64,000 bases of DNA from Thermodesulfobacteriota bacterium. GTDB lineage: Bacteria > Desulfobacterota_D > UBA1144 > Nemesobacterales > UBA2774. The stretch spans positions 21,286 to 85,285 of the forward strand of contig DAOKYU010000009.1 of assembly GCA_035325995.1 (NCBI GenBank). Reading direction: 5' to 3'. Each line of letters starts with the position of its first letter. Within the stretch, counting starts at the first letter, position 1. The notes beneath the pieces are model-generated. The model made no database searches. It saw nothing but the letters and a program-made list of their open reading frames with translations, and was not told the origin of the DNA. The position numbers and the translations under genes were made by a program. This document shows, one piece after another, positions 4,880-54,899 of the stretch.

Positions 4880-5380
4880 GTGGCACTGAACAAACCGGAC
4901 AAAGAAACGCTGGACCGCTGGCACCGCAACGAGGGCAAGACCGAACCGCCCCGGCGCGGGCCTGGTGCGCCCGAGGGCAACCAGAACCGGCTGCGCCACG
5001 GCATCTTTGCCGACCGCTGTCTGACGCCGGAAGAGAAGGTCATGTTCGACGCGATCATTGACCGCCTCAACCAGGACTTCGAGTTCAACAAGTCCAGCGA
5101 CTTCCTGCAGGTGGAGCTGGTCGGCGTCTACTCGGTGAAGCTGGTCCGCGCCCAGATCGAAGGGAACACCGACGCCGCCGAAAAGCTCGACCGGATGATC
5201 CGCTGCCACATGAAGGATCTCAAGACCACCAAGATCGCCCGCGAGGGTGAGGAGCCGAAAGGACTGCAGACCTCTCCGGCGGAATGGGCGGCGGCGCTGC
5301 TTGAGAAGGTGGCCGAGGCCACCAACGCCCCGGGCGCGAAACCCTCCGGCCGCAAGAAACGCGGAAAGAATTGCGGATAA
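4880..5380 (+). CDS. putative terminase small subunit-like protein
   Basis: GNQNRLRHGIF motif resembling the GNxNAxKHG motif of some TerS families; basic C-terminus. Position in the genome is atypical, so this is a weak call. Confidence 0.3.
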   Translation: MALNKPDKETLDRWHRNEGKTEPPRRGPGAPEGNQNRLRHGIFADRCLTPEEKVMFDAIIDRLNQDFEFNKSSDFLQVELVGVYSVKLVRAQIEGNTDAAEKLDRMIRCHMKDLKTTKIAREGEEPKGLQTSPAEWAAALLEKVAEATNAPGAKPSGRKKRGKNCG

Positions 5381-5576
5381 CACCATGGAGGGCTTTTCCG
5401 ATGACCCCGGCACACGGCGACTTGCGGCAGACTGCTTCACCAGGAATTGCGGATAAGACGTGTTCCTTGCACTTTCGGAATCGGCATTCTCCGGCTGCCG
5501 ATCATCATTTCCACTCCTCGATTTCTTCCTGCAGCTCTCGATATCCGCTTGGCATGTGTGCGCATAAGCCGAGCCG

Positions 5577-5779
5577 CATAACCCAAGTAGATATTGGCAT
5601 GTTCGCGCCGGAGCTCTCTCACACAACCCAAGTAAATATTGGCATGTCGAGCCCCAGGCAGAACCGGCCAAGCCCCGCAAACAGCCATTCCTTCGGCAGC
5701 GGCCCTCACATAAGCCAAGCAGATATTGCCATGTGTGTTCCGCGCCTGGAGCGCACAAGCCAAGCAGTTATAGCCATGT
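5577..5779. repeat. Four 26-bp direct repeats in two pairs, each pair 45 bp apart; candidate recombinase binding sites
   Basis: Repeat consensus CA(T/C)AA(C/G)CCAAG(T/C)A(G/A)(A/T)TAT(T/A)G(G/C)CATGT, copies at 5577-5602, 5622-5647, 5709-5734 and 5754-5779. Nearby at 5555-5568 is a GTGCGCATAAGCC dif-like XerC-arm. The array lies immediately 3' of the Xer-like recombinase gene. Confidence 0.65.
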
Positions 5780-5980
5780 GCGGCCGACAGACAGCGAAGG
5801 AGAAATTACGGTCAATCGATATTTCCCGCTCCGCCCGGGAGGAAGAGACCCTCCGTCATGATCATTCATCATCGGCGGATGTGTTCTTCTGCGGGCACTG
5901 TCATTCACTGTCTTCGACACTGTCTCGGCCAACGAAAACAGGAGCAGCCGAGGCCGCTCCCATCGTCGGGTCCGGAAGGA

Positions 5981-6895
5981 TCAGAGGCGTTCGAGGGCTT
6001 CCTCGAGCTGACCGTCCACGAGGTGGGTATAGATCTGGGTGGTGGACACGTCGCGATGTCCCAAGGCCCGCTGCACCACGAGCAGGTCATTGGTCGCGCC
6101 GTAGAGGTGGGTGGCGAAGGTGTGACGCAGCCCGTGCGGCGTCAGTTCCTTTTCGATCCCGGCTTTCCGCAGCCAGTGGGCGAGCCGGTTTGCAATCTGC
6201 CGCTGGCAGAGTCTGCCGTCCCGGTTCGACAGGAACAGGGCTTCCATTTCCGGGCGGCCGTGTCGACGACGCTCGGCCAGGTAACGGCGCAGCAATGTGC
6301 GGAGGTCGGTCTTGATGAACTTGACCTGCGGCACATTCCCCTTGGCCCGCACCCGCAGATGCTTGGCGTCGAGGTCGATGTCATCCATGTCGAGCGCGGC
6401 CAGCTCGCCAAGCCTGATCCCGGTGCCCAGCAGCACCTCGATCATGGCGCGGTCGCGCAGCGCGGAGAAGTCGGTCCGTCCCTTGAGTTCCTTGAGGAGC
6501 CGTTTCTTTTCGGCGGCGGTCAGGAACACCGGCAGTTTTCTCGGCAGCCGATGCATGCGGATGGACCGGGCCGGATTGTCATCGACCACGCCCGCCTCGA
6601 CAGCCCAGGCGAAAAAGGCTCGTACCGCAGCCTTCATCCGATGGAGCGAAGCCGCCGAGCGAGGGCCGCGCTCACTCTCGATAACCACCTCGGCGGAGAA
6701 CACCTGGTCGAGGAGCCCGGCCGTGACCGCCCGGCAGACGATGCCCGGGGTCAGCTTCCCGGCCACGCGGGCCACCAGGGCGAGGTCCCGGCGGTATGCG
6801 GCTATGGTCGCAGGGGAGCGTCCTTCGGCCGACAGGCGGGCACAGAACGCCTCCGTCGCGCCCGTCAGGTCGAGGTCAGCCGTTCGGTTGCTCAT
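5981..6895 (-). CDS. tyrosine site-specific recombinase, XerC/XerD-like
   Basis: N-terminal SAM-like core-binding domain, and C-terminal catalytic motifs HGLRHTFATHL, LGHRDVSTTQIYTHL (R..HxxR..Y). Confidence 0.8.
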   Translation of the reverse strand: MSNRTADLDLTGATEAFCARLSAEGRSPATIAAYRRDLALVARVAGKLTPGIVCRAVTAGLLDQVFSAEVVIESERGPRSAASLHRMKAAVRAFFAWAVEAGVVDDNPARSIRMHRLPRKLPVFLTAAEKKRLLKELKGRTDFSALRDRAMIEVLLGTGIRLGELAALDMDDIDLDAKHLRVRAKGNVPQVKFIKTDLRTLLRRYLAERRRHGRPEMEALFLSNRDGRLCQRQIANRLAHWLRKAGIEKELTPHGLRHTFATHLYGATNDLLVVQRALGHRDVSTTQIYTHLVDGQLEEALERL

Positions 6896-7250
6896 CGCTG
6901 GACTCCTTCACCCGGCTGTGGCCCATGGGTGTGCTCTTGGGCAGAGGCAGCTCCGCGATGCGCCCCGATTCCCTGGCCCAGACCATCATCATGCGGAACA
7001 CCCGGACGGTCTTGGCGACGGTGCGCTCGGCCCGCTCCTTGCCGTCGGGGAGTTTGAGCAGCAGGTCGGACTTGTAGAACTTGCCGACCTGGGGGAGCCG
7101 GATCTCGGCGAGCTGGCGATCCGCGCCGAAGAAGGCCTCGACCACGTCGAGGTCCTTCCTGTAGGTGTAAAGGGTCCGCTCTTTCTTTCCGGATTCCCGC
7201 AGGTGGCCGATGAAAGCCTCGGCGGCTTGATGCACGGTGCATTCGGTCAT
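6876..7250 (-). CDS. stand-alone integrase N-terminal SAM-like (core-binding) domain protein
   Basis: 124 aa, different frame from the recombinase, resembles only the N-terminal domain (TLYTYRKDLDVVEAFF). Possible remnant or accessory. Confidence 0.4.
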   Translation of the reverse strand: MTECTVHQAAEAFIGHLRESGKKERTLYTYRKDLDVVEAFFGADRQLAEIRLPQVGKFYKSDLLLKLPDGKERAERTVAKTVRVFRMMMVWARESGRIAELPLPKSTPMGHSRVKESSDEQPNG

Positions 7251-7283
7251 GTCGATGTCTCCTTTGTCGGTGGCCCGGTGTGT

Positions 7284-7478
7284 TCAGGACAGGAACTCGT
7301 CCAGCTCCCGCAGCAGTTCCTCGACGTGGCCGAGGGAGCCGACGCTCGCCCAGGTGATGTCCGTCTGCTTCGCGTCCGCTTCGAGCTTGCCGCGAATGCC
7401 CTCGATCAGCCGGGTGATGTTTTCCTGCTTTTCTCGGTACGCCTTGAGTGCCTGCTGGCGGTTTCTGTCGTAGGTCAT
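7284..7478 (-). CDS. small hypothetical protein
   Basis: 64-aa ORF from internal Met upstream of the recombinase genes. Weak call. Confidence 0.2.
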   Translation of the reverse strand: MTYDRNRQQALKAYREKQENITRLIEGIRGKLEADAKQTDITWASVGSLGHVEELLRELDEFLS

Positions 7479-7618
7479 GGCCTGCCTCCGGTTCCGGTTT
7501 TCTTGGATGCGGGACCATCCCGCGTCACATCCAATGACGCTTCTATTTCGTTGGAAATCAAGTGCTTGCAGAGATCTTTCTGCATGTGCCCCAAACCCAT
7601 AAACCAAAGGAGATCAAC

Positions 7619-7891
7619 ATGTTGAAGAAGACCCTCGAATGGACCATCCCGCTGGTCCTGGCCGGGATCATGACCGGCTGCGCCACCTACCGGCCTCCGG
7701 CCCAGATCCAGTCGGCGGTGGCCACCGTCAACCGCCACACGCCCGAGTATGTGACCGAGGCCAACAAGGCGCTGCGCGAGGTCGGCCACCCGGACGCCGA
7801 GCGCCTGACCGGTGTCGGCCTGCGCCTGCAGACCGCCGTGGACGCCCTTGACCAATGGGCCAACGGCTCGAACCAGGAGGCAGGCCAATGA
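7619..7891 (+). CDS. small lipoprotein (signal peptide + lipobox)
   Basis: AAAGGAG RBS. N-terminus MLKKTLEWTIPLVLAGIMTGC matches signal peptide followed by lipobox Cys. Confidence 0.5.
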   Translation: MLKKTLEWTIPLVLAGIMTGCATYRPPAQIQSAVATVNRHTPEYVTEANKALREVGHPDAERLTGVGLRLQTAVDALDQWANGSNQEAGQ

Positions 7892-8166
7892 AAGAGATCC
7901 TTCAGGAAAACAGCGATGCCGTCCGCCAGGCCGGTGAGGCCCTGGTCGAAATCGGCACCGAGCTGGCGGCGGGACGGATCGAGAACGCCCTCGGCCGTCT
8001 GGAAGCGGCCCAGCAGCAGTACCTGGCCTGGGCGGAGTTGGACCAGGCCATCATCGACATTCAGGAAGCTGTCCACGACCGGAAGAACACCCTGGCCGTG
8101 CAGCAGATCCTGACGGAACTGGTGGGCACCATCCTCGGAAACGCCTTGAGGACAGGAATGCATTGA
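7888..8166 (+). CDS. small hypothetical phage protein
   Basis: GGAGG RBS. ATGA-coupled to lipoprotein gene and stop overlaps TerL start. Confidence 0.4.
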   Translation: MKEILQENSDAVRQAGEALVEIGTELAAGRIENALGRLEAAQQQYLAWAELDQAIIDIQEAVHDRKNTLAVQQILTELVGTILGNALRTGMH

Positions 8167-9689
8167 TGGCGGTAACCGACAAGGAGCGCAAACTCGCGGC
8201 GACCCTGAGCGATCCCGTGTTGTGGGGGCAAGCCTACCTCTACAACCGGGATGGCTCAGGCCGCGACTACTGGCCGCACCAGGTGGAGGACCTGCGCTGC
8301 CCTGCCAAGAACATCATCCACCTCGACGGCCGGGACGTGGGCAAGTCCATCGTGCTCTCGACCGACGCGCTCCATTACGCCTTCACCACCCGAGGCGGCC
8401 AGGGCCTCATCGCGGCTCCGCACCAGGGGCACCTTGATACCATCATCGAGGAGATCGAGTTCCAGCTCGACACCAACCCGGATCTGATGAACAGCATCGC
8501 CCTGACCAAGTACGGCAAGCCCAAGATCCACCGCAAACCCTACTTCCGGCTGGAGTTCACCAACGGTTCGGTGCTCTATTTCCGCCCGGCCGGGGCTTAT
8601 GGCGACGCCTTCCGGTCCCTGCACGTGAGCCGCGTCTGGGTCGATGAAGGAGCCTGGCTGACCGAGCGTGCCTGGAAGGCGCTGCGCCAGTGCCTCAAGG
8701 CCGGGGGGACGCTACGCATCTACTCCACGCCCAACGGCCTGCGCGACACCACCTATTACCGGCTCACCTCGTCGGATCAGTTCCATGTGTTCCGCTGGCC
8801 GTCCTGGCTCAATCCCCTGTGGACCGAGGAGCGCGAGGCCGAACTGCTGGAGTTCTACGGCGGCCGCGACAGCTCCGGCTGGCAACACGAGGTGGCCGGT
8901 GAACACGGCAAGCCCTCCTATGGGGCCTTCAATGTCGAGCAGTTCAACCTCTGTCGGCAGGATCTGCTGGAGTATCAGAAGATCGTCATCACCGATTCCG
9001 AGCTGCGCGACTGCGACACCGAGGAAGCGGCCCACGACCGGCTGGAGATGCTGCTCAACCTCACGCCCCGCAGCGGGCAGTTCTGGATCGGTGGCGACCT
9101 GGGCTACACCAACGACCCCACCGAGATCGTCGTATTCCAGGAGACGGAGATCGGCGAGCGGACGCTGCTGAAGATGATCCTGCGCGTGCATCTTGAACAC
9201 GTTTCCTATCCGCACATCGCCCAGATCATCGCGCTGCTGGAGCGTTACTACACCCCGGCGGGCATCGGCGTGGACAATGGCGGCAACGGTCTGGCCGTGG
9301 TTCAGGAGCTGCTCACCCTGGACAAGTACAAGGGGCTTGAGTTGGAAGGCAGGCTCAAAGGATACGATTTCGGCGGCATGACCCGGCTGGCGGTCCGCGA
9401 CGGCAAGGAAGTCAAGAAGCGCACCAAGGAGCTGATGACCAGCCTCATCAACGGAGCCCTGCAGCGCAAGCAGGTCATTTTCCCCTCGGACGACCTGGAA
9501 GTGGAAGACCAGTTCACCACCCACACCTACACCCTGCGGGACGGCAAGATCATCTATTCCAAGGGCAACGACCACATCATCGACGCGGTCCGCTGTGCCA
9601 TGCTGATCCGGGAAGAAGGCAACCTCGACCCGGTCGGCGAAGAGGTGGTTTCGCTCAAGCCCGTGCTCACCAATCCGGTCTTCATCTGA
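8166..9689 (+). CDS. terminase large subunit
   Basis: N-terminal ATPase (HLDGRDVGKS Walker-A-like). C-terminal RNaseH-like nuclease with GGDLGYTNDPTEIVVF ... DHIIDAVRCA. Position before portal. Confidence 0.75.
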   Translation: MAVTDKERKLAATLSDPVLWGQAYLYNRDGSGRDYWPHQVEDLRCPAKNIIHLDGRDVGKSIVLSTDALHYAFTTRGGQGLIAAPHQGHLDTIIEEIEFQLDTNPDLMNSIALTKYGKPKIHRKPYFRLEFTNGSVLYFRPAGAYGDAFRSLHVSRVWVDEGAWLTERAWKALRQCLKAGGTLRIYSTPNGLRDTTYYRLTSSDQFHVFRWPSWLNPLWTEEREAELLEFYGGRDSSGWQHEVAGEHGKPSYGAFNVEQFNLCRQDLLEYQKIVITDSELRDCDTEEAAHDRLEMLLNLTPRSGQFWIGGDLGYTNDPTEIVVFQETEIGERTLLKMILRVHLEHVSYPHIAQIIALLERYYTPAGIGVDNGGNGLAVVQELLTLDKYKGLELEGRLKGYDFGGMTRLAVRDGKEVKKRTKELMTSLINGALQRKQVIFPSDDLEVEDQFTTHTYTLRDGKIIYSKGNDHIIDAVRCAMLIREEGNLDPVGEEVVSLKPVLTNPVFI

Positions 9690-9693
9690 TCGC

Positions 9694-9732
9694 ATCCTCC
9701 GACGCTTTCCACCCCGCTCCGGTAAGTAACCG
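9694..9732 (+). promoter_or_regulatory. copy 2 of conserved late-module motif (CCTCCGAC..CTCCGGTAAGTAACC) upstream of portal
   Basis: Intergenic, 33 bp upstream of the portal ORF. Confidence 0.5.
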
Positions 9733-9764
9733 GCATCGAGCCGGGTTCGGCCCACACGGGCCGG

Positions 9765-11312
9765 ATGTGCGGCTGTCATGGCCGAAACTACCGAGAGGAT
9801 CACGTGGAAAGCACTGCCCATCAGGACGACCAACCCGAAAGCCTGGACACCACCGGCTTTGTCATCGCGCCGCTGGCCGCAGCGGCCGCGCTCGACTCGG
9901 CCGCCTTCAGCAAGGTCAACGCCACCGAAGCGATTCCGGCCACCTGGGAAGAACGCGCCCGCAAGGCCTGGGAATACTACGTCGAGGAGCCGTTGGTGAA
10001 GAACTGCGTCAACTCCTGGCGCACCTTCGCCGTGGGCGACGAGATCAAGATCACCAGCGATGACGAGACCCTTAAGGAGCAGGCCCTGGAGGCCGCCTGG
10101 CGGTTGAACATCACGCAGTTCATCAAGGACATGGTTCTTCAACTCCTGGTGAAAGGCGACGCCATCGGCTTCAAGCGCTTTACCAAGTCCGGCCAGGACA
10201 TCGAGGAACTGGTCTGCGTCAACCCGGTTTCGGTCAAGGTTAAATACGCCCAGGGCGAACTGATCGAGGCCCGGCAATTTCCCGAGGACACCCCCGGCGG
10301 CGGGGAATCCATCCCGCTGCCCGTCGAGCAGGTGGTCCACCTCAAATGGGACGCACCGGCCTTCTCGCCCCGGGGTAACTCCCTCGTGCTTCCCGCTTTT
10401 CAAGCCATCGAACTGCTGCGCGACTACCGCCGGGCCGAACAGGCCATCGCCAAACGCTGGGCCACGCCGTTTCGCCTGCTCAAGGTGGGCGGCGCGTTCG
10501 GCCAGAAGATGGTGATGCCGGACCAGCGGATGCTCGAACAGGTTCGCGACATGGTCAACAAGATGGACATGAAAAGCGGCCTGGTGGTCCCGTTCTACGT
10601 CAATGTCGAAACCCACGGCACCGACGGCCAGGTCCTCAACGTCGAGGACAAGGTCAAGGAGGTGAAGGAAGACATCGTGGTGGCCCTGGGTCTGTCACGC
10701 TCGCTGGTGACCGGCGATGGCCCTAATTTCGCCACCGCCTCGGTGAGCATGCAGAAGATGATGGTCATGATCCGCGAGATCAAACAGGCCGCACGCAAGC
10801 TCCTCGACTGGGTGTTCGATGACTGGATGGAGCTGAACGGCCACGGCGACAAAAGCATCCAGTTCATCTTCAACGACCTCGACCCCAGCGACGCGGTCGA
10901 TTTCAAGAAGCTCCTCATCGAACTCTACGACCGCAAACTCATCAGCCGCTCCAGCCTTCAGCTCAAGATGGACCTGGACCCGGACATCGAGGCTGCCAAC
11001 CGCGAGACAGAACGTAAGCAGATCGACCTGATGGACGAGAAACAGGTGAAGCCGGTGGTGGATATGGTCGTCTCCGGCATCCTGAGCGTGCCTCGCGCCC
11101 GGAAGATGCTCGGGATTCCGGCCGAGGACAATGAACCCACGGCGGAGGCTGCATTGGTCTGGTCGGGCGACCTGGAGTCCACCGGCGATGCGGCCGTGTG
11201 CGACGAGTGCAGCCACTTCATCGCTGACACCAACCACTGCCGGGTCCACAACAGCGAGCGCACTTTCGACGCCCCGGCCTGTCGTTTCATCGACCGTCGG
11301 GAGCCCCGCTGA
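9765..11312 (+). CDS. portal protein
   Basis: 515-aa ORF immediately after TerL and before MuF-like head protein. Start uncertain, with alternative GTG at 9804 after a GAGAGG RBS-like hexamer (9794-9799). Confidence 0.65.
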   Translation: MCGCHGRNYREDHVESTAHQDDQPESLDTTGFVIAPLAAAAALDSAAFSKVNATEAIPATWEERARKAWEYYVEEPLVKNCVNSWRTFAVGDEIKITSDDETLKEQALEAAWRLNITQFIKDMVLQLLVKGDAIGFKRFTKSGQDIEELVCVNPVSVKVKYAQGELIEARQFPEDTPGGGESIPLPVEQVVHLKWDAPAFSPRGNSLVLPAFQAIELLRDYRRAEQAIAKRWATPFRLLKVGGAFGQKMVMPDQRMLEQVRDMVNKMDMKSGLVVPFYVNVETHGTDGQVLNVEDKVKEVKEDIVVALGLSRSLVTGDGPNFATASVSMQKMMVMIREIKQAARKLLDWVFDDWMELNGHGDKSIQFIFNDLDPSDAVDFKKLLIELYDRKLISRSSLQLKMDLDPDIEAANRETERKQIDLMDEKQVKPVVDMVVSGILSVPRARKMLGIPAEDNEPTAEAALVWSGDLESTGDAAVCDECSHFIADTNHCRVHNSERTFDAPACRFIDRREPR

Positions 11313-14300
11313 TGCCGTCGGACCTCAAGCAGCGCATCCATGCTGCCACCCTAAAGAGCCTTACGGCCCGCAACCGCTACAACGACCAGGTCACGGCCCA
11401 GCTTACCCAGGCGCTGAAACAGGCCGAAGACGAGGTCGCCCGCGCCATCCTCCAGTACCGCTCCCTCGGCTCCCTGCCGGACAACAAGCTCGCCGCCCTC
11501 AAGGGGCTGGAAAAGCTCCAGCTCGAACTCGACGACACCATGAAGCGGCTCAAACGGGAGCAGACCCTGCTCTTTCGCAAGACGACCAAGGACTCCTTCA
11601 AGCTCGGCATCCAGCAGGGAATCGGAGAGCTCGCCGACTCAGCGCTGCCGTTCTACGCCGACCTGAAGCCCGAGGGCATCGACAAGCTGGCCACCAAGGT
11701 GTTCACCATCGTCGACACCAATGCCCTCGACTTCATGGCGCAGTACAACCTCACACTCGCCGGTGACGTCCACCGCGAACTCGCAGACGGCATCAAGCGC
11801 ACCATCCTGAACGGCGTCGCCACGGGCAAGGGAGCCGACGACATCGTCCGGGATATGGGCAAGGTGATCGTCGACAAGGACTCCTTTCGCCAGGCCGGAA
11901 GCCGGGTGTTCAGCAAGGCGCAGTACCGCATGGAGATGATCGCCCGCACCGAGGTTCTCCGCGCCCACAACATGGGCAGGCTCAAGTTCCACGAGCGGGT
12001 CGGCATCCAGAAGCTGGAATGGCTGGCTATGGAGGACGAGCGCATGTGCCCGGTCTGCGGCGGCCTGGACGGCAAGACCTTTCCCATCGACAAGTTCCCC
12101 CAGCAACCCGCGCATCCGCACTGCCGCTGCACCAACATCGTGGCCTGGCCGATGACCGTCTGCGGTAGCGAGATGGCCGCCAAGGCAGCCGCCCAGGCAT
12201 CGCAGGGGGACGCATGCATTCTCCCGCCCCATGTGCTGGAAGGCATGGCCGACGCCCAGGCCAAGGAGAACGCCAAGCTCAAGAGCGCCTTTGAAAACGG
12301 CGACATCGCCGACCTCGGTTCGCTGACGGTCAAACAGCTCCAGACCCTGGCGAAACAGAACGGCGTGGCCATTGCCCGGACCAAGGCCGATTTCATCAAG
12401 ATGCTCGATCTGGCCGAACCGGGGATCGATCACGGCGACCTGGCCGGAGCGGCACTCAGCGCCAAGCTCAAGGAACACAAGATCGGCCTGCTGCGGACCA
12501 AGGAAGAACTGGTCGAGCTGCTCGGACTGAAGCAGGCGGAACTCAAACAGGCCAAGCTGCTCGCCGCCCAGTTGGCGAAGATCCCTCCCGCCGAGGGGCT
12601 GGAGGGCATGACCGCTCAGCAGCTCAAGGAGATGGCGAAGGAGAACGGTATCTCCCTCAACATGACCAAGCAGGAGACCATCGAGCTGCTGGATAAGCTG
12701 GAACCCGGCGTGGATCACAGCGGCCTGATGGGCAAGGAACTCGCGGCGGCCAAACAGAAGCACGGCATCGGCATCCTCAAGAACAAGCAGCAGCTCGTTG
12801 AGGCGCTGCAGAAGAAGGCCGGTGCCGACATGGCCGAGTCGGTCAAGAAAAAGGCAGTCGACGAGGCCAAACAAAAGCTGCTCCTGAAACAGAAAACGGC
12901 ACTCGAAGACGCCGCCAAGGCCGTGGTCGTTCCCGACACGCCGACCGGCTACAAGGATTTCCTCGACGCGATTGCCAAGGTGGAACAGGCGGTTTCCGGC
13001 GGCACAGATCTACCCCAGGATCTGCTGGCGGCCCACAGCAAGGAAATCGCCCTCAAGAAACAGCTCTTTCAGGATCAGATCGGCAAGCTGAAATCGACGG
13101 AGCTCAAGACGCTCGCCAAGGAGACCAAGGTCCAGTATTGGCAGTGGGCCAACAAAGACGAGCTGGCCACGCTCTTCACCGAGACCGATCCCGCGAAAAT
13201 CAAAGCGGTTCAGGCCAGCATCGACACCAAGCACGCAGCCTGGGCCGAAAAACATGGCGGCAAGAAGAAAACCGCACCGGCCAAGCCCGCCACGCCGAAG
13301 AAAGAGCCACCGAAACCGGCTCCGCAGCCGATCCCGGTCAAGCCGCCCGAGCCCAAGATCGGCAAGAAAGGCGCGGAGTTCGCCACCGTCGATACCGCGT
13401 GGCAGCAGAAGGGCCTGTCTTCGAAATTCAAGAAATCCGGCAAGGCCGCTGTCGGCGGCGCACACGAAAAGGAGTTCTGGACCGACGAAAACGGCGACAA
13501 ATGGCTGTTCAAGCCCATTGGCCGCAAGGATGACGAGTTCATCGCTTTCGGAGAGGAAGCCGCGTACAAGATCGGTCGCCTGATCGACCCTCATTCCATC
13601 GAGGTGCGCACCATCCAGTTGAACGGCCGCACCGGCTCCATCCAGAAATGGCGCACCGATCTGCGGGACGACTTCGATTTTCGCAACATCCTGCCCCAGG
13701 ATCTGACCACCATCGAACTGGAGCAGATCCAGCGCGAGCATGTGGTCGACTGGCTGATCGCCAACCACGACGGACACTCCAAGCAATTCATCCGCGCCCG
13801 GGACGGTCGCGTCTACGGCATCGACAAAGGCCAGGCCTTCAAGTTTCTGGGTCAGGACAAGCTCTCGCTCGACTATCACCCCAACGGCGTCTGCGGCGAG
13901 GAAGAGCCGTTTTACAACAAGGTCTTCCGGGCGGCCAAGGAAGGGAAGGTACGGGTCGATCCGAACGCGACCCTGCGCTACATCCAGGAAGTCGAAAAGA
14001 TCGCCGACGAGGATTACCTCGATCTGCTGCGGCCTTACGCCGAGGGACGGTTCGCCAAGGACCCGGCCGGGCTGCGGCATTTCTACGATCTGGCCTTGGA
14101 GCGGAAACACAATCTCCGGCGGGACTTCGAGGGTTATTACGCCGATGTGCTGGGGGATCGGGGCTTCCGTTTCGACAAGCTGAGCGCCGCCACCGGCAAG
14201 AAAAAGCTGCTCTCCTCCGCCGAAGAGACCCTGGTCGAGGAGGCCCGCAAACTCGGCTGGCAAGGCAAGACGTTGCCCTTCGACAGCGGCGACGTGGAGG

Positions 14301-15901
14301 ACCAGAACGCGCTGATCTTCACTGAGAGCTTCAAGGGGAAGAAGCGCACCGTGGTGAAGATGAAGATCCGGCCGGACACCGACCGCCGCATCGACGAGGT
14401 GCTGCGCAGGTATGTGCAGACGGCTGCCGGGGAAAAGGGACAACCGCTGGTCGAAGACAGCTTCTTTCCGACGATTCTGGACGCCGTCAAAAACGTCAAT
14501 TTCCACGTGGGCGACGGCAAGTACAACCGGACCAAGATCGACAAGGCCCTGCGCCTGCGCAAGAAACTGGAGACCCTACAAAAGAGCGCCGACCCCAAGG
14601 TCAAGGAGATGGCGGACCATTATCTGAAATGGGTCAAGGAGATCGAAGAATCCGTCGACTGGGACCGGGCCACCAACGGCGTTTTTGAGCAGTATCTGCC
14701 CAAGCTCGACGCGCAGAAACCCAAGGAGAAACCGCCGTTCAAGGTGGAACGCGGCAAGGTGACCCACACCAAGCGCAGGATCAGTTCCGGCACCATCACC
14801 GTCGAGGCCGACGACATCGACAACCGGACGCTGTTCAATCACAACTCCCGCATGCAGGACGGGCACCAGTACACCGTCACCTTCGAGGACGGCACCCGGG
14901 TCCGCTATCGCCCCTGGTCGGACACCAACCTTTATGCCCAGCGCGGAGAGCTGGAAATGATCCTGGATGGCGATGCCACCCCCGGACGGGTCGAAGCGAT
15001 GCTGGAAAAGCTCGAACAGCTCGGCATCGACACCCGGGTGGCCACGGCGGAAAACGCGGAGCAGATGTATCTCGAAAAGCTCGCCTACATCCGCAAGACC
15101 GACAAGAGCGCCGACTACAAACGACTGCAGAAATCCCTCGACGACCGCAACGCCACCACCACCGAGCGGGTCCAGGCTCTGCGCGGCTATTGGCAAAAGG
15201 AACTTGGCGTCCAGGACATCACCCAGCTTTCCGGATACAACCCGCTGGGCGAATATCAGGCGGGCTTTCTGGACCGCGACGCCAAGGGCGGATACCGGCA
15301 CCAGCTCCGGTTCGACATCACTGAGGAGGACCTGGAAAAACAGATGAAGGGCTATTCGCTGGTCCACGATCTGACCAACGGCGAGAGTATGTCCGGCTTC
15401 ATCGACTTGATCATGGAGAACAACGGAGCCATGGTCAGCACGGTCGAGAAGATGCGCATGGGCGTGGCTCCGGGCGGAATGTCCCCGGTGGCTGACATGC
15501 AGACCGGCGGCGCGAGCTATTTCTTCACCCGGATCAAGAAGCAACCGGCCAGCGACGCCTCACCGGCCCTCTATTTCAAGAAACAGATGCTGCGGCGCAT
15601 GGACGCCATCAGCTACGACCATGACGCCTACGGCAAGGTGATTGATGACTACGTGCAGCGCAACCGGGGGGCCAGCATCGACGACTGGAAGCGGTTCTCG
15701 CAGCGCCATGGCAACGAGACCATCTTCAAATACTCGGTGACGCTGCTGGACAACATCGAATTCATCGTCGCCAGAAGCGACAACGAACGCCGGGAGATCA
15801 TCCAGAGTTTCACCCGGCGCGGCATCAAGAAACTGCCCGACGGGCGCAAGGTGGAGGACATCGTCCATACCCCGCAAAGCTGGAGCAAACGCAAACAATG
15901 A
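11312..15901 (+). CDS. MuF/SPP1-gp7-family minor head protein with a ~1,100-aa C-terminal extension (HeH/Rho-N-like repeats, P/K-rich linker, atypical-kinase-like core)
   Basis: MuF motif region MCPVCGGLDG...HPHCRC. Three to four ~45-aa HeH-like repeats (LTVKQLQTLAKQNGVAIARTKADFIKML...). Linker KKKTAPAKPATPKKEPPKPAPQPIPVKPPEPK. Then WLFKPIGRK / LIANHDGHSKQF / GIDKGQAF resembling the HipA/PI3-4K catalytic core. Confidence 0.7.
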   Translation: MPSDLKQRIHAATLKSLTARNRYNDQVTAQLTQALKQAEDEVARAILQYRSLGSLPDNKLAALKGLEKLQLELDDTMKRLKREQTLLFRKTTKDSFKLGIQQGIGELADSALPFYADLKPEGIDKLATKVFTIVDTNALDFMAQYNLTLAGDVHRELADGIKRTILNGVATGKGADDIVRDMGKVIVDKDSFRQAGSRVFSKAQYRMEMIARTEVLRAHNMGRLKFHERVGIQKLEWLAMEDERMCPVCGGLDGKTFPIDKFPQQPAHPHCRCTNIVAWPMTVCGSEMAAKAAAQASQGDACILPPHVLEGMADAQAKENAKLKSAFENGDIADLGSLTVKQLQTLAKQNGVAIARTKADFIKMLDLAEPGIDHGDLAGAALSAKLKEHKIGLLRTKEELVELLGLKQAELKQAKLLAAQLAKIPPAEGLEGMTAQQLKEMAKENGISLNMTKQETIELLDKLEPGVDHSGLMGKELAAAKQKHGIGILKNKQQLVEALQKKAGADMAESVKKKAVDEAKQKLLLKQKTALEDAAKAVVVPDTPTGYKDFLDAIAKVEQAVSGGTDLPQDLLAAHSKEIALKKQLFQDQIGKLKSTELKTLAKETKVQYWQWANKDELATLFTETDPAKIKAVQASIDTKHAAWAEKHGGKKKTAPAKPATPKKEPPKPAPQPIPVKPPEPKIGKKGAEFATVDTAWQQKGLSSKFKKSGKAAVGGAHEKEFWTDENGDKWLFKPIGRKDDEFIAFGEEAAYKIGRLIDPHSIEVRTIQLNGRTGSIQKWRTDLRDDFDFRNILPQDLTTIELEQIQREHVVDWLIANHDGHSKQFIRARDGRVYGIDKGQAFKFLGQDKLSLDYHPNGVCGEEEPFYNKVFRAAKEGKVRVDPNATLRYIQEVEKIADEDYLDLLRPYAEGRFAKDPAGLRHFYDLALERKHNLRRDFEGYYADVLGDRGFRFDKLSAATGKKKLLSSAEETLVEEARKLGWQGKTLPFDSGDVEDQNALIFTESFKGKKRTVVKMKIRPDTDRRIDEVLRRYVQTAAGEKGQPLVEDSFFPTILDAVKNVNFHVGDGKYNRTKIDKALRLRKKLETLQKSADPKVKEMADHYLKWVKEIEESVDWDRATNGVFEQYLPKLDAQKPKEKPPFKVERGKVTHTKRRISSGTITVEADDIDNRTLFNHNSRMQDGHQYTVTFEDGTRVRYRPWSDTNLYAQRGELEMILDGDATPGRVEAMLEKLEQLGIDTRVATAENAEQMYLEKLAYIRKTDKSADYKRLQKSLDDRNATTTERVQALRGYWQKELGVQDITQLSGYNPLGEYQAGFLDRDAKGGYRHQLRFDITEEDLEKQMKGYSLVHDLTNGESMSGFIDLIMENNGAMVSTVEKMRMGVAPGGMSPVADMQTGGASYFFTRIKKQPASDASPALYFKKQMLRRMDAISYDHDAYGKVIDDYVQRNRGASIDDWKRFSQRHGNETIFKYSVTLLDNIEFIVARSDNERREIIQSFTRRGIKKLPDGRKVEDIVHTPQSWSKRKQ

Positions 15902-16410
15902 CCATGAAGGACTTTATCGAGCAGGAGAAACGAAGGCTGCAGGAAGCGCTGCACTGGTTCAACAACCGGGGCAGCCGCATGACCCTAAGGGAATCCGGGG
16001 ATCTCTTTCTGGATACCCTGGTGGACAGCTTCACCGTCACCCGGATCGCACCCCATTTCGACGCCGTAGGCAACCATCTGCGCACCGATTTCTGGCTGTT
16101 GTGGAAGGCGCTTGGCTACGACGAAGGCTTTCAGCACGCCCACACCGTCAAGGTCGTCGATGTCCGGGTCGAAGATACCCTGACGGCCGAACATGACGGC
16201 AAGGAGGCCGAAGGCTGGCTGATTGTCGAGCTGACCGACGATCTGGGCCGGATTCACCATGTCGAAATGATGGAGCCGGTCTCGGAGCCCGAGCTCGCGG
16301 CGGACTGGCAACGCTGGATCGCCTACCGCCAGAAAAACGCCGAAAGATTCCGCCGGATCGACGCCCAGCTTCTGGCCGAGCATCTCCGGATCGCGGAGGA
16401 CTGGTCATGA
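15898..16410 (+). CDS. hypothetical phage protein
   Basis: ATGA-coupled ORF, no recognisable domain. Confidence 0.4.
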   Translation: MTMKDFIEQEKRRLQEALHWFNNRGSRMTLRESGDLFLDTLVDSFTVTRIAPHFDAVGNHLRTDFWLLWKALGYDEGFQHAHTVKVVDVRVEDTLTAEHDGKEAEGWLIVELTDDLGRIHHVEMMEPVSEPELAADWQRWIAYRQKNAERFRRIDAQLLAEHLRIAEDWS

Positions 16411-16760
16411 AACTGCGCTATATGCTCGACTCGATAATCGCAGACCGGCAAGCCACCGCCCCGGAATACGTGCCCGTGGGCGTCTGGGTTCAGGGGCCGG
16501 GTCCCGGTCTGGATGTGGAGATGTACTATCTCGACCGTGGGCCGAACGGGCTTGCCGACCGCAGGGACGAGGCCGCCTGGGTGGTCAACCGTCTGGTCGA
16601 GGCCGGGGCCACCTCGCTTCCGGCGGATTTTCTCGAATACCACCGGCTGTCCCGCTCCCCCTATGACGGGTTCTTTTCCGAGATCACCGAGAGCGACGAA
16701 TACCCCTCCCTCGACGCCTGCGGCAAGGCCGTTCTGACCCGTCTGAACCCCGCCCGCTGA
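16407..16760 (+). CDS. hypothetical phage protein
   Basis: ATGA-coupled ORF. Confidence 0.4.
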   Translation: MKLRYMLDSIIADRQATAPEYVPVGVWVQGPGPGLDVEMYYLDRGPNGLADRRDEAAWVVNRLVEAGATSLPADFLEYHRLSRSPYDGFFSEITESDEYPSLDACGKAVLTRLNPAR

Positions 16761-16772
16761 AATTCGCCGTCA

Positions 16773-16810
16773 CCCTCCGACACATCGCCGACGCTTCCGG
16801 TAAGTAACCG
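16773..16810 (+). promoter_or_regulatory. copy 3 of conserved late-module motif (CCTCCGACACATCGCCGACGCTTCCGGTAAGTAACC)
   Basis: Intergenic, 54 bp upstream of the MTase-protease-scaffold gene. Confidence 0.5.
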
Positions 16811-16863
16811 CTGAACGCTCCCCGCAGGTCGCGGAGAGCACAGCAAACTGACCGGAGACGTTG

Positions 16864-19260
16864 ATGGAACTGTTCGCCACAGACCTGGAAAGGCTGGCGT
16901 TTCTACTGGAGGCCGATGCGGCGCTGACTCTCGATCCCGACACGCTCGGGACCGAGGCCGCCGAACAGTCCGCTCCTGAAGAGCTCCCTCCCGAGAAACG
17001 CCCCAAGTACATCACCAACTACATCGGCAGTAAGCAGAAGCTCGTCGACTGGATCTGGAAGCATACCCCGGAAGGCACTGGCACGGTGCTGGACGCCTTT
17101 TCGGGGTCTGCGGTCGTGGCCTACATGTACAAGACCAAAGGCCTCCAGGTCATCGCCAACGACCGGCTCCGCTACTGCCATCACGCCGCCAAGGCGATCA
17201 TCGAGAACAACTCGGTTCGCCTGAGCGAGGACGAGATCGAGGCGCTCCTGGCCGACAACGCCAAGGCGGGCAGCTTCGTTCAGGACAACTTCAAGGGCAT
17301 CTTCTTCGCCAAGGGCGTCCATGCGCTGATCGACACCATCCGCGCCAACTGCGACAAGCTCTCCGGCTTCAAGAAAGATATCGCCCTGTTCGGCCTCGGC
17401 AAAACCTGCATGAGCGGCAAGGGTGGCTTCGGCCACTTCTCGTCGTCCACCGATTATGGCCGCCGCCAGGACACTCCCGACGAGTTCAAGGATCGCCTGC
17501 GCAAGAACCTGCAGCGCATCAACGCCCTGGTCTTCGACAACGACAAGGAGAACAAGGCATACCGGCAGGACATCAACGATCTGCTGCCGAAAGCCAAGGC
17601 GGATCTGGCCTACTTCGATCCGCCTTACGCCACCGAGTTTTCGACCACCAACTACGAGCGGGCCTACCACTTCGTGGAGGGGCTCATGACCTATTGGGAA
17701 GGGCTCGAAATCAAAGCCGACACCAAGGTCAAGTATTACGAGACCGACCACAAGACCGTCACCAAGGCCAACGCCAGCGAGTTCTTCCAGACCTTTCTCG
17801 GCAACGCCAAGCACATCCCGCACTGGCTGATCTCCTATCGCGATCACGCCTATCCCAACGAGCAGGAGATGAAGCGGATCATCGGCTCCTTTGGCAAGCA
17901 GAGCCGGATGAAGTCCAAGGATCACCACTACGCCATCACTTCCAAGCACGGCGAGGCTTCCAACGCCAAGGAGCGTCTGTTCGTCTGCGCTCCCGGGGCC
18001 AAGGCCAGCGCCGAGCGGGAGGAGAAACCCGTTCCGATGGCTGCCGCCGCGAACTTCCACACCAGCATCCCCGTGGACATCCGGCTGGGCGAAGGCGAAC
18101 GCCTCACGACCGAGGCCATGGATGTCGGCTCGGCGGGCGACCCCCAGTTCAGCTTCGTGCTCTGCCGCACCGGCACCAACAAGAACGGCGACCACTTCAC
18201 CGCCGAGGAGTTGTCCGGTCGGCACATGACGGCCGTGAACAAGAAGGTCGATCTGCAGCATTCGCAGGAGTTCAACGACATCGTTGGTGGCATCGTCGCC
18301 GCCGACTACCTGGAGGACGACAACGGGGGCCGCGTGGAATGCGTCGGCGAGCTGTACGTCCACGACACCCCGGCCGCCCGGCTGGCCTACAAGCTGATGA
18401 AGCGCGGGATCATCTCCCAGGTCTCCATGGAGTGCGACTACCAGGAAGGCGAATGCTCGGTCTGCCACAAGCGCTTCCAGAACAAGGCCGACTACTGCAC
18501 CCACCTGCGCAAATTCAAGGGCCGTGATTTCAACGGCCAACCCGTTTTCGAGATTCTGCACGGCGTCACTTTCACCGGACTGGGACTGCTCGACCGCAAA
18601 GGCGCGGACGAGAACGCCAGGATTCTGCAGGTGGCGTCCCTTCAGAGCCAGCCCGACCAATCCCAACCCGAAGGAGATTCCACGATGGAAGACAAAACCA
18701 AACCCACCGATGACCAGGCCGTCGAAGCGGCCAAGAAGAAACCGGCCCAGCAGGAAGGCGATCCTGCCCGCGTTACCGACCTGGAAAAGGAAAACCGGCA
18801 GCTCAAGGCCCAGGTCGCCGAGCTGCAGAAACGCGTCCAGGAACTGGAAGCCGAACAAAAGGCGGCCGCCTGCCGCTCCCGGGCCAAGAAGCTGCTCACC
18901 CGTCTGGAGAAGCAGGGACTCTCCTTCGCTTCCGAGGAGGACCGGGAAGCCGAACTGAAACGCCTGGCCGAACTGTCCGACGAAGCCTTCGCCGCCACCG
19001 AGGCTGCTTACGAACGCCTGCCCAAGTCGGCCAAAGCGGACAAGGACAAGGAAGAGAAACCCGCCGACAGCGACCAGGGCGGCAAGCCCGCCGCCAAGGC
19101 CTCGACGGAAACCCCGCTGCGCAGCGACGCCGGTGTCCGGCCCCACGATGTGGACGACCGCAAGGTGTCGCTCGAGGACCGCCTGCGCGACGGGTTCATG
19201 GCCGCTTACCGCAACCGTGTCGGCGAGGACTCTCCCGAACACTCGGAAATCAACGCATAA
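16864..19260 (+). CDS. fusion protein: Dam-like N6-adenine DNA methyltransferase + prohead protease + coiled-coil scaffold
   Basis: N-terminal KYITNYIGSKQKL and AYFDPPYATEF (DPPY motif IV). Middle GELYVHDT...IISQVSMEC resembling the HK97-type prohead protease. C-terminal coiled coil DLEKENRQLKAQVAELQKRVQELEAEQ typical of scaffold. Single uninterrupted ORF. Confidence 0.65.
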   Translation: MELFATDLERLAFLLEADAALTLDPDTLGTEAAEQSAPEELPPEKRPKYITNYIGSKQKLVDWIWKHTPEGTGTVLDAFSGSAVVAYMYKTKGLQVIANDRLRYCHHAAKAIIENNSVRLSEDEIEALLADNAKAGSFVQDNFKGIFFAKGVHALIDTIRANCDKLSGFKKDIALFGLGKTCMSGKGGFGHFSSSTDYGRRQDTPDEFKDRLRKNLQRINALVFDNDKENKAYRQDINDLLPKAKADLAYFDPPYATEFSTTNYERAYHFVEGLMTYWEGLEIKADTKVKYYETDHKTVTKANASEFFQTFLGNAKHIPHWLISYRDHAYPNEQEMKRIIGSFGKQSRMKSKDHHYAITSKHGEASNAKERLFVCAPGAKASAEREEKPVPMAAAANFHTSIPVDIRLGEGERLTTEAMDVGSAGDPQFSFVLCRTGTNKNGDHFTAEELSGRHMTAVNKKVDLQHSQEFNDIVGGIVAADYLEDDNGGRVECVGELYVHDTPAARLAYKLMKRGIISQVSMECDYQEGECSVCHKRFQNKADYCTHLRKFKGRDFNGQPVFEILHGVTFTGLGLLDRKGADENARILQVASLQSQPDQSQPEGDSTMEDKTKPTDDQAVEAAKKKPAQQEGDPARVTDLEKENRQLKAQVAELQKRVQELEAEQKAAACRSRAKKLLTRLEKQGLSFASEEDREAELKRLAELSDEAFAATEAAYERLPKSAKADKDKEEKPADSDQGGKPAAKASTETPLRSDAGVRPHDVDDRKVSLEDRLRDGFMAAYRNRVGEDSPEHSEINA

Positions 19261-19272
19261 GGAGGAAACACC

Positions 19273-19635
19273 ATGTCATTCATCAATCCGTGTCACCGCA
19301 GCCTCGCCTATGGCGACGGCCACATCCAGGGCGACGGCCAGCTTGGCCAGGTGGTCCGCGTGGTCGGCGACGACCTGTTCGCCGTCAACACCGATCCCAC
19401 CAAGCGTTCCTTCGGCATCCTGATCAAGGACTACGCCGGTGGCGAAATGCCCGGTATCTACTGCGATGGCGGCGTCTACGAGACCGACGCCTTCGAAGGG
19501 ACCGTCGTCGCCGGAGACGACCTGAAAGTTTCGGCGGGCGGTCGCCTGACCAACGGTGTCGCGGCCGGAGAGCACGTGGTCGCCCACGCCATTTCCGTAC
19601 AGAGCGGCGTCCTCAAATTTCGACTGCTCGTCTAA
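19273..19635 (+). CDS. small beta-rich head-associated protein (DUF2190-like) adjacent to capsid gene
   Basis: 120 aa, Gly/Val-rich, position immediately before major capsid gene. Confidence 0.45.
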   Translation: MSFINPCHRSLAYGDGHIQGDGQLGQVVRVVGDDLFAVNTDPTKRSFGILIKDYAGGEMPGIYCDGGVYETDAFEGTVVAGDDLKVSAGGRLTNGVAAGEHVVAHAISVQSGVLKFRLLV

Positions 19636-19653
19636 CCCAAGGAGCCAACGCAC

Positions 19654-20517
19654 ATGAAAACCAATCAGTTGAAGATCCACTCCCAGGAGTACATGGAAAC
19701 CATGGCGCGGCTCATGAGCGAGGCTCTCGAGTCGCCCGAAGGCATGCGGGCGCTTGCCGCCGCCATTGCCGCGCCCATCGAACAGGAGATCAAGCGCAAG
19801 GAGATCTCCTCGCTGCTGCTCACCAAGCACACGCTGCCCAAGGGCGAACGTCCGGTTTACCAGAAGAAACCGACCGTCAAGGCCCACTGGATCAGCAAGG
19901 ACGGCGACGCCCAGGAGCAGGAGGTGGGCAAGGACGAAGTCGAGTTCCCCACCAATCGCATCCACTCCAATCCGATGGTGGACGTGTCCGTCCTCAAGAA
20001 CGGCAACATCGGCACGCTGATGGACATCCAGACCAGCGCAGCCGACGCCATCCGCAAGGAGATGGACCGCCGCACCATCTCGGTGCTCTCCTCGGCCATC
20101 CCGGCGACCAACACCATCGAGGTCACCGGCGACCTGCTCACCGAAGAGGCGCTGAACGAAGCCATCTCGATCATCGAGGACCTGGAGCTGTCGGTGAAGT
20201 ACATCGTCATGCGCGGCCGCCGGTTCAACGACATGCGCGGCTGGAACCTCGATCCCCAGACCAAGCTCGAGCTGCGCCAGAAGGGTGTCATCAAGAACTA
20301 CGGCACCGGCGGCATTCTGCTGACCGCCTCCATGCCGCTGGACGAGATCATCATCGTCCCGGATGAAGAGGTCGGAAAGATGCCGGTGCGCGAAAACCTG
20401 AAGACGGAGTCCATCGATCAGAAGACCCGCTTCAAGACCGGCTGGCTGGTGTGGTCCGAGATCGGTCAGGGCATTACCCGCCCTGACATCATGGCCAAGG
20501 TCAAACTGGTTCCGTAA
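19654..20517 (+). CDS. major capsid protein
   Basis: 287 aa following protease/scaffold and decoration-like gene. Strong RBS. Confidence 0.65.
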   Translation: MKTNQLKIHSQEYMETMARLMSEALESPEGMRALAAAIAAPIEQEIKRKEISSLLLTKHTLPKGERPVYQKKPTVKAHWISKDGDAQEQEVGKDEVEFPTNRIHSNPMVDVSVLKNGNIGTLMDIQTSAADAIRKEMDRRTISVLSSAIPATNTIEVTGDLLTEEALNEAISIIEDLELSVKYIVMRGRRFNDMRGWNLDPQTKLELRQKGVIKNYGTGGILLTASMPLDEIIIVPDEEVGKMPVRENLKTESIDQKTRFKTGWLVWSEIGQGITRPDIMAKVKLVP

Positions 20518-20536
20518 TCTTAGGAGGTGACGTGAG

Positions 20537-20896
20537 ATGAATCGAATCAAGAACATCCGTCCCGGCGTTCTGGTGATCCCCGACGCCGGGCTGAAACTCA
20601 AGCCCGGCCAGGTGGTCGAGGTGGAACGCCTCACCAAGCAGATCCAGGCAGCACTCAAGAATGGCCGCCTGGCCATGGCCGACAAACCGAAGCAGGAACC
20701 GCTCGCCCCTCCAGAGCCCGATCAGGACGCGGAACCGGTGGACCTGAGCAAGCTCTCCGCCACCGACGCCATCTCCAGGGTCAACGAGGAAGCCAATCCG
20801 GAAACCCTTAAGGGCTACATGGAAACTGAAAAACGCCGCACGGTGATCGACGCGCTCAAGAGCCGTCTGGAGGGCCTGCAAGGTGCTGCTGAGTGA
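20537..20896 (+). CDS. hypothetical head-associated protein
   Basis: ORF with RBS GGAGGTGA. Confidence 0.4.
   Translation: MNRIKNIRPGVLVIPDAGLKLKPGQVVEVERLTKQIQAALKNGRLAMADKPKQEPLAPPEPDQDAEPVDLSKLSATDAISRVNEEANPETLKGYMETEKRRTVIDALKSRLEGLQGAAE

Positions 20897-50649: not shown

Positions 50650-54899
<4,250 letters not shown>

Follow-up and report, generated by a model that had tools for sequence, protein, structure and literature searches.

We report that a single gene in the head module of a phage genome encodes a 1529-residue protein in which a MuF head domain and DNA-binding repeats precede two predicted enzymes: an atypical kinase and an ADP-ribosyltransferase (ART) that resembles DarT. 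The gene lies in a 64,000-nucleotide stretch of DNA from a Thermodesulfobacteriota bacterium (assembly GCA_035325995.1, contig DAOKYU010000009.1, positions 21,286 to 85,285), referred to here as the window, whose genes are those of a contractile-tailed phage or prophage. The product is probably a virion-associated, co-injected two-enzyme effector of a temperate contractile-tailed phage, of the type known as polyvalent proteins. An earlier note, made from the sequence alone, had proposed a head protein with an effector-like extension, and the results below support much of that proposal, extend it by a second enzyme, and correct it on several points.

The reading frame is genuine and is constrained along its length. 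In a search of 5.8 billion proteins it was found uninterrupted and at full length (1509-1550 residues) in more than 120 independent 90%-identity clusters, at 45-99% identity, and the gene is unbroken in complete isolate chromosomes, in dozens of isolate genomes and metagenome-assembled genomes (MAGs), and in dozens of IMG/VR viral contigs. Among 12 near-identical copies, the ratio of nonsynonymous to synonymous substitution rates (dN/dS) was 0.069 for the MuF domain, 0.063 for the HeH repeats, 0.071 for both the kinase and the middle region, and 0.052 for the ART, the lowest of all domains; the highest value within the protein was that of the Pro/Lys-rich linker, at 0.20. Therefore, all parts of the protein are translated and constrained, and purifying selection at the codon level spans every domain junction. 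Source annotations for the family give only "head morphogenesis" or "minor capsid protein", and its PHROG (phrog_6577, 1454 bits) is labelled "unknown function". No Pfam model covers the last 700 residues, and sequence searches of Protein Data Bank (PDB) chains with the whole protein and with the family profile returned nothing meaningful. Among 50,697 GenBank phages, megablast found no match to the 12-kb head region, tblastn against GenBank phages gave only partial, domain-wise matches at less than 35% identity, and a scan of viral contigs with the closer ART alignment returned only close relatives.

The N-terminal portion had been read as a MuF/SPP1 gp7 domain bearing a CPVC...HPHCRC motif, and curated models agree: Pfam Phage_Mu_F (PF04233) scores 59.2 bits against a cut-off of 29.6 (E=8.3e-16) and TIGR01641 (phageSPP1_gp7) 66.7 bits against 39.65 (E=2e-18), while many "head morphogenesis" PHROGs match the same domain. 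Its Cys/His cluster (C246, C249, H268, C271 and C273) is invariant in an alignment of 32 family members (46-90% identity) that was used for all invariance calls, as are all of the other motifs named in the earlier note. The gene also lies where a MuF-family gene is expected, directly after the portal gene in a terminase-portal module. The HeH/Rho-N-like repeats that were proposed to follow resolve into a tandemly duplicated 74-residue unit with two motifs in each copy, for which the local self-alignment score is 169, versus 29.7 +/- 5.6 for shuffled sequences. Pfam matches Rho_N and SAP at residues 430-455 of the protein, and across the alignment Rho_N is matched in 23 of the 32 members (best E 3.7e-8) and SAP in 15. 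A stretch at residues 593-622 that resembles a further motif by eye aligns to the two units with scores of 37 and 30, which is not above chance. The Pro/Lys-rich linker that had been noted next is likewise present.

The region of ~850 residues beyond the linker had been likened to atypical kinases of the HipA/PI3-4K type. This holds for residues ~700-960, where both the predicted fold and the motifs of such a kinase are found; the rest of the region comprises an unassigned middle part and a second predicted enzyme, and by sequence the kinase falls below the thresholds of the curated families. The motifs comprise a glycine-rich loop, GGAHEK (G716, H718 and K720), a lysine (K734), Q778, a catalytic loop, H819-D820-G-H822-x-K-Q825, and a metal site, I-D838-K-G-Q841. 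Invariant in the 32-sequence alignment are W731, F733, K734 and P735 of WLFKP, N818, H819, D820 and H822 of NHDGH, and G836, D838 and Q841 of GIDKGQ. Over 228 family sequences, K734, Q778, D820 and D838 are 100% conserved and G716, H718, K720, H819 and Q841 95-99% conserved. The catalytic loop had been written as DxHxxN; D820 and H822 are indeed conserved, but the last position is Gln in the close family.

An AlphaFold2 model of residues 685-1135, with a predicted local distance difference test score of about 85-97 across the kinase core, shows a bilobal kinase fold. Its fold-match figures were 15.9 and 15.5 for type II-alpha phosphatidylinositol 4-kinase (PI4K), 14.2 for Helicobacter pylori CtkA, 13.4 for Fam20, 13.0 for Legionella MavQ, 11.9 for a HipA_C protein, 11.6 for PI3K-alpha, 11.5 for CotH, and 11.0 and 9.7 for HipA. 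A sequence profile of 14 diverse members aligned, weakly (E 0.07), its GS-Q ... DW-hDxHxxN ... IDK onto GSIQ ... GDRHLDN ... IDF of VPS34, so that catalytic loop and DFG site fall in register, and Fam20B and HipA came next, at the same loop. In Pfam, the HipA_C model reaches 13.9 bits against a cut-off of 30.5, the same weak match occurs in 28 of the 32 relatives (the best, at E 1.6e-4, is still under the cut-off), and PI3_PI4_kinase gives no match. As modelled, the domain would work like a HipA/PI4K-type kinase, yet it stands outside any curated family.

The C-terminal ~225 residues form a separate fold that the earlier note overlooked, and the fold closest to it is that of DarT. Fold-match figures for the ART model were 10.9 for DarT1 of E. 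coli C7, 9.6 for a DarT entry from Thermus sp. 2.9, 9.6 for Thermosipho africanus DarTG, 9.2 for M. tuberculosis DarTG, 8.2 for SopF, 6.9 for OspC3, 5.9 for Tpt1, 5.1 for CteC and 5.0 for CopC, and every one of these listed matches is an NAD+-using ART fold. Independently, Foldseek placed five DarT entries on top, the best with probability 0.99, E 0.016 and a template-modelling (TM) score of 0.52 normalised to DarT. In the predicted secondary structure H1352 lies at a strand end, Y1403 at the start of a strand (GGASYFFTR) and E1469 at the start of another (NETIFK), and in the model these residues occupy the positions of a candidate ARTD-type His-Tyr-Glu triad. All three are invariant in the close family and, together with R1382 and D1395, are largely kept at 35% mean identity. 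R1382 is near-invariant and lies 21 residues before the tyrosine. In DarT2 the catalytic, proton-abstracting R51 lies 20 residues before Y71 (PMC11543638); R1382 may therefore be its counterpart, matched by spacing rather than superposition. A domain profile retrieved no PDB chain at a threshold as loose as E≤10, and Pfam ART-PolyVal gave no match.

Between the two enzymes lies a well-predicted middle region (residues 961-1305) that has no sequence match in Pfam or the PDB and no fold assignment, and which is conserved together with both flanking enzymes. Weak matches of this region to the Hsp70 substrate-binding domain (probability ≤0.23) were discarded.

The kinase, middle region and ART travel as a block. 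HMMER with residues 685-1529 over 1.84 billion cluster representatives, counted at 50% clustering, returned 2172 proteins at E≤1e-3, 763 of them at E≤1e-30. Most of the matches carry kinase, middle region and ART as one stretch at the C-terminus of proteins of 800-3200 residues; some also bear portal, MuF, ART-PolyVal or DUF3626 domains, among them proteins in which the block is fused to portal plus MuF. The block was always found within head-morphogenesis modules, including those of unrelated phage lineages. In a relative at ~31% identity (L163, 3948-7448), a 345-residue gene in the MuF position and an 815-residue kinase-ART gene are separate and adjacent. The order there is a 657-residue gene in the terminase position (no Pfam match), portal, the 345-residue gene (no Pfam match, but with a MuF-like CxxC motif), the kinase-ART gene, two small genes, and a methyltransferase-protease fusion. 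This gene order indicates that the neighborhood is conserved and that fusion to the gene in the MuF position is optional; two arrangements occur naturally, of which the window has the fused one. In lineages with a different terminase type, the kinase-ART gene is also found between portal and MuF. The earlier note had pointed to MuF proteins as known carriers of polymorphic toxin domains. Here, the same C-terminal block persists in relatives of 99% down to about 30% identity, also where MuF is a separate gene, with no toxin exchange. Because it is a conserved unit, always in head modules and sometimes a separate gene beside MuF, the block does not represent an exchangeable tip of the polymorphic-toxin kind.

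Close relatives departed from this arrangement in just two cases found, an insertion sequence (IS) and a deletion with replacement. The first, in a Bryobacterales MAG (L047, 11115-12163), was considered as a C-terminal toxin swap and rejected: a minus-strand IS element encoding a DDE_3 transposase and a helix-turn-helix protein sits inside the ART domain and breaks it after the equivalent of residue ~1409, and this prophage copy is decaying. The second is in one of two prophage copies in Desulfobulbus rhabdoformis (L073, 7567-10430; 97-98% identical), where a minus-strand XhoI-like restriction endonuclease, an Eco57I/TaqI-type methyltransferase and a helix-turn-helix protein take the place of residues 500-1529 and of both small genes that follow, orf170 and orf117.

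More distant relatives vary the combination. The same kinase family is joined to an unrelated ART of the C3/VIP2 type (ADPrib_exo_Tox) in gp54 of the Mycobacterium prophage McProf (L001) and its relatives in Mycobacterium prophages, as well as in a 781-residue protein from another phage lineage (P0252; L165, 4001-6346) that occurs on at least 24 contigs. In one subfamily there are two tandem kinase domains (for example P0208, P0214 and P0238), and cyanophage Pan1 gp15 has MuF and the middle/ART part with no detectable kinase; the main text of the Pan1 paper makes no statement on the presence of gp15 in virions. We infer that the recurrence of kinase with ART, even where the type of ART is exchanged, suggests that the two activities cooperate.

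Isolates of two phyla carry the head region as a whole (window 5312-21900, 16.6 kb; loci L004-L017, L040, L050, L052 and L058), with nucleotide identities of 95.7-97.7%. Carriers in the Desulfobacterota are Desulfosarcina alkanivorans PL12 (complete chromosome), Desulfocarbo indianensis, Desulfofustis glycolicus DSM 9705, Desulfobulbus rhabdoformis DSM 8777 and Desulforhopalus, and the carrier in the Gammaproteobacteria is Ectothiorhodospira shaposhnikovii DSM 243. MAGs with the labels Verrucomicrobiota, Ca. Thiosymbion and Rhodospirillaceae contain it too, as do many IMG/VR contigs, and a Hydrogenedentales MAG has it at 91.8%. Since the copies differ by 3-4%, they do not represent a single contaminant. 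Such breadth is unusual for one prophage, and a search of the literature found no report of this cross-phylum prophage.

The features of the protein and of the surrounding module are collected in Table 1. The genes run in the order terminase, portal, the 1529-residue gene, two small genes, a methyltransferase/protease fusion and capsid, then tail sheath and tape measure. Directly downstream in nearly all relatives, at 42-100% identity, are orf170 and orf117, which are clearly coding in alignments and faster-evolving. Profile searches of Pfam, PHROGs, NCBIfam and the PDB found no match for either, and their hidden Markov models fail to recognize the two small genes in the same place in the ~31%-identity relative. 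Such a pattern would suit proteins that inhibit the enzymes, confer immunity to them or act as chaperones in loading them. Family searches of the neighbors, both locally and in distant contexts, detected no macrodomain, NADAR or ARH eraser beside the gene. The 799-residue protein encoded next matches Pfam MethyltransfD12 at residues 54-294 (E=9e-26) and, weakly, an HK97 prohead protease at residues 458-524, and the ~30%-identity relative keeps this fusion as MethyltransfD12 with Peptidase_S78_2, which suggests a DNA methyltransferase targeted into the capsid.

Table 1. Positions of the protein domains and neighboring genes in the window
Feature	Position	Strand	Remarks
Whole 1529-residue ORF	11312..15901	+	ATG start; MuF, HeH repeats, Pro/Lys linker, kinase, middle domains, ADP-ribosyltransferase
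MuF / SPP1 gp7 minor head protein domain	11312..12181	+	aa 1-290; Pfam match aa 160-275
Two tandem 74-aa units	12311..12817	+	aa 334-407 and 429-502; each with one full HeH/Rho_N/SAP-like motif and a second, shorter helix-hairpin motif
Possible fifth, degenerate HeH-like motif	13088..13177	+	aa 593-622, LKSTELKTLAKETKV...; by eye
Pro/Lys-rich low-complexity linker	13244..13381	+	aa ~645-690; from sequence
Atypical kinase domain	13409..14191	+	aa ~700-960
Middle region	14192..15226	+	aa 961-1305; helical/beta-hairpin part, then beta-sandwich and helical bundle; AlphaFold2, well predicted
DarT-like ADP-ribosyltransferase domain (predicted)	15227..15898	+	aa 1306-1529; candidate triad H1352 / Y1403 / E1469; conserved R1382, D1395
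Large terminase	8163-9689		terminase-portal head module
Portal gene	9765..11312	+	Pfam Phage_portal / Portal_Mu; stop codon overlaps ATG of the 1529-residue ORF (TGATG)
orf170, conserved small gene	15898..16410	+	start overlaps stop of the 1529-residue ORF (ATGA); candidate inhibitor, immunity protein or chaperone
orf117, second conserved small gene	16407..16760	+	start overlaps orf170 stop (ATGA)
Next head gene, 799-aa fusion	16861..19260	+	Dam-type N6-adenine DNA methyltransferase with prohead protease/scaffold-like part
Tail sheath	23049-24578		
Tape measure	25892-29527		

Two further observations concern the window outside of the head module. Behind a DNA primase fragment (55-1209) in the early region, positions 1303-3245 of the plus strand hold a gene for a 448-residue AAA_21 ATPase ("putative AbiEii toxin" family; E 2e-48) followed by an overlapping gene for a 198-residue protein (phrog_16255, unknown function), a pair that may be a prophage-borne defense or exclusion module. 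Over positions ~54000-62000 the G+C content falls from about 0.63 to 0.45-0.50 across a run of large plus-strand ORFs (55318-58164, 58161-59240, 59237-60130 and 60201-62063), which may be cargo or a prophage boundary.

The protein belongs to a known kind, MuF-anchored and head-packaged effectors of the polyvalent class, of which this particular family is uncharacterized. Polyvalent proteins, described from phages and conjugative elements, count kinases, ARTs and Rho-N/SAP HEH domains among their components, with examples of the kinase in Verrucomicrobia prophages (Iyer et al. 2017, PMC5512222). Like them, the protein is large, predicted to be virion-associated, and carries several effector domains on a MuF or portal anchor. 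With MuF, HeH, kinase and ART it has the two or more effector-type domains that define the class, and its relatives add portal, ART-PolyVal and DUF3626. Set side by side by description, the Verrucomicrobia kinase may be the same domain as the one described here. However, the kinase-like domain of that report lacks the C-terminal lobe, whereas our model is closest to PI4K-II, HipA and CtkA, and the ARTs there are His-Tyr-Asp "ART-PolyVal" enzymes, whereas this one is His-Tyr-Glu and DarT-like (PMC5512222).

The individual enzymes resemble other systems in part. DarT1 and DarT2 of DarTG are the best structural match to the ART and have an ARTD-type His-Tyr-Glu arrangement with a conserved Arg between His and Tyr (PMC11543638, PMC5179494), to which the candidate residues named above would correspond. 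In contrast to the ART described here, which has no detectable sequence similarity to DarT, forms the C-terminus of a phage head protein, and has no DarG or NADAR partner among the neighbors searched, DarT is a stand-alone host toxin that defends against phages. The kinase shares with HipA/HipT, H. pylori CtkA and type II PI4-kinases the bilobal atypical fold, the HipA-type GxxxK glycine-rich loop, the catalytic-loop Asp and the DFG-like Asp; unlike HipA/HipT, its Pfam HipA_C match is sub-threshold, its loop ends in Gln in the close family, and neither a HipA N-terminal domain nor a HipB-type partner was detected. McProf gp54 and its relatives, annotated as "minor capsid and ADP-ribosyltransferase fusion", have a kinase-like domain 31-33% identical over residues 718-975 in a head protein beside the portal, with an ART at the end. 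Unlike in our protein, their N-terminus is VG15 rather than MuF (Pfam) and their ART is the unrelated C3/VIP2-type ADPrib_exo_Tox.

The course of events that we favor for such an effector follows that of other head-packaged proteins. The MuF domain would bring a few copies into the procapsid beside the portal, like SPP1 gp7, and the HeH repeats would keep the protein on the packaged DNA. At infection it would exit together with the DNA, in the manner of T4 Alt and P1 DarB. T4 Alt is an ART of the R-S-E type loaded by a capsid-targeting sequence, and P1 DarB is a methyltransferase-helicase that acts in cis on incoming DNA. The likeness proposed is to capsid-carried enzymes that act as the DNA enters; it does not extend to the loading of Alt, which is not via MuF, or to the kinase, which neither protein carries. 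Ahead of any phage gene expression, the kinase, with ATP, and the ART, with NAD+, could then modify host targets or nucleic acid close to the incoming genome, so that host functions would be shut down or redirected, or defenses disarmed. The products of orf170 and orf117 might plausibly silence the enzymes in the producing cell or assist loading. There are precedents in MuF-fused and head-packaged effectors, in the kinases and ARTs of polyvalent proteins, and in T4 Alt (PMC5512222, PMC9503650). Given the DarT-like fold and the DNA-binding repeats, the target may also be a nucleic acid.

Several points weigh against this interpretation. Virion presence, ejection and both enzyme activities are predictions from sequence and models. 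The ART assignment comes from predicted structure, as no sequence method detected the domain and Pfam, DUF4433/DarT included, gave no match to it in the 32 members, and the His is absent in about a fifth of the most divergent ART sequences. In the kinase, Q825 stands in the close family where the wider family and PI3K/HipA have the catalytic-loop Asn. The loss of the block from the replaced D. rhabdoformis copy may mean that the enzymes are dispensable, or that this copy is defective. Finally, because HipA and DarT are both growth-arresting toxins, an antibacterial toxin role is possible.

The alternative that survives best, though on balance we think it unlikely, is that the protein gives DNA-directed protection in cis. 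The DarT-like ART would ADP-ribosylate phage or host DNA at entry or packaging, while the HeH repeats would tether the enzyme to the genome and the kinase would target the adduct or host proteins bound to DNA. In concert with the neighboring capsid-targeted Dam methyltransferase, it would shield the incoming genome from restriction, like the P1 Dar proteins. Two programs rank the DNA-base ARTs DarT1 and DarT2 closest among solved structures, which speaks for this, as does the placing of R1382 before the tyrosine compared with R51 of DarT2, a match of spacing only (PMC11543638); but the fold does not fix the substrate, and the protein ARTs SopF, OspC3 and CteC match too. The HeH/Rho_N repeats would provide contact with DNA, although DarT works on single-stranded DNA and packaged DNA is double-stranded. 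The adjoining methyltransferase-prohead protease fusion is kept even in 30%-identity relatives, and it is a restriction-modification system that replaces the enzyme block and both small genes in one near-identical copy. On the other hand, the same kinase family is also paired with protein-modifying C3/VIP2-type ARTs, and the search for an eraser beside the gene was negative.

Less likely again is a MuF-type polymorphic toxin used in bacterial competition, with orf170 and orf117 as cognate immunity proteins, one for each toxin domain. Prophage-encoded precedents exist in the MuF polymorphic toxins (Jamet et al. 2017, PMC5576092) and in Bxa of Bacteroides stercoris, a MuF-ART protein with two immunity proteins (PMC11699363); these share with our protein an N-terminal MuF domain, a C-terminal toxin-type enzyme and small genes after it. 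Both enzyme folds belong to families that include the toxins of toxin-antitoxin systems, HipA and DarT, the two small, faster-evolving genes follow directly with start/stop overlaps, and the replaced copy in D. rhabdoformis loses the enzyme block and both small genes together. Unlike the tips of these toxins, however, the block here is non-polymorphic, 1200 residues long, composed of two enzymes and conserved lineage-wide, and the absence of a swapped, variable C-terminus weakens this explanation. In addition, family searches found no recognizable immunity or ADP-ribosylhydrolase gene, the small genes resemble no known family of immunity proteins, antitoxins or ADP-ribose hydrolases, and their positional counterparts in the distant relative are not detectably homologous.

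MuF/gp7 proteins play structural roles, the enzyme activity here is predicted, and Q825 replaces the usual catalytic-loop Asn, all of which would suit a head protein with only a structural or morphogenetic role, its enzyme-like domains being inactive relics. This is very improbable, as it is weakened by the conservation of catalytic residues: those predicted for the kinase are 97-100% conserved (228 sequences), and the ART, with a triad invariant in the close family, has the lowest dN/dS of the protein. An assembly or frameshift artefact joining separate genes, which the earlier note had raised, merits next to no credence, for although MuF and the kinase-ART block are adjacent separate genes in some distant relatives, complete isolate chromosomes and over 100 independent clusters hold the uninterrupted frame, with purifying selection across the junctions.

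The two-enzyme head protein thus represents a family that is very large (more than 2000 representatives at 50% clustering), spread through prophages of many phyla, and invisible to current annotation. On one capsid anchor it unites relatives of two classic growth-arrest toxins, HipA and DarT. To our knowledge, very few head-packaged enzymes have been studied, the main examples being T4 Alt and the P1 Dar proteins, and such enzymes decide whether an infection starts because they are active before any phage gene is expressed. The literature searched contained no DarT-like ART on a phage head protein, nor a fixed pairing of one with a PI4K/HipA-like kinase. Should its substrate be DNA or RNA, the ART would be the first counterpart of the DarT defense toxin to be delivered by a phage, and since DarT2 already serves as a DNA-editing tool (PMC13368585), new DarT-like enzymes are of practical interest. 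A bolder proposal, whose likelihood we place low, between those of DNA-directed protection and of a competition toxin, is that the protein is a capsid-carried nucleic-acid ART, a DarT relative turned phage weapon or shield, obligatorily paired with a PI4K/HipA-like kinase and working alongside a capsid-targeted Dam methyltransferase, so that DNA or DNA-bound proteins are modified at entry. If true, such a host-independent entry kit would help explain how a near-identical prophage (~96% DNA identity) comes to be found in different phyla.

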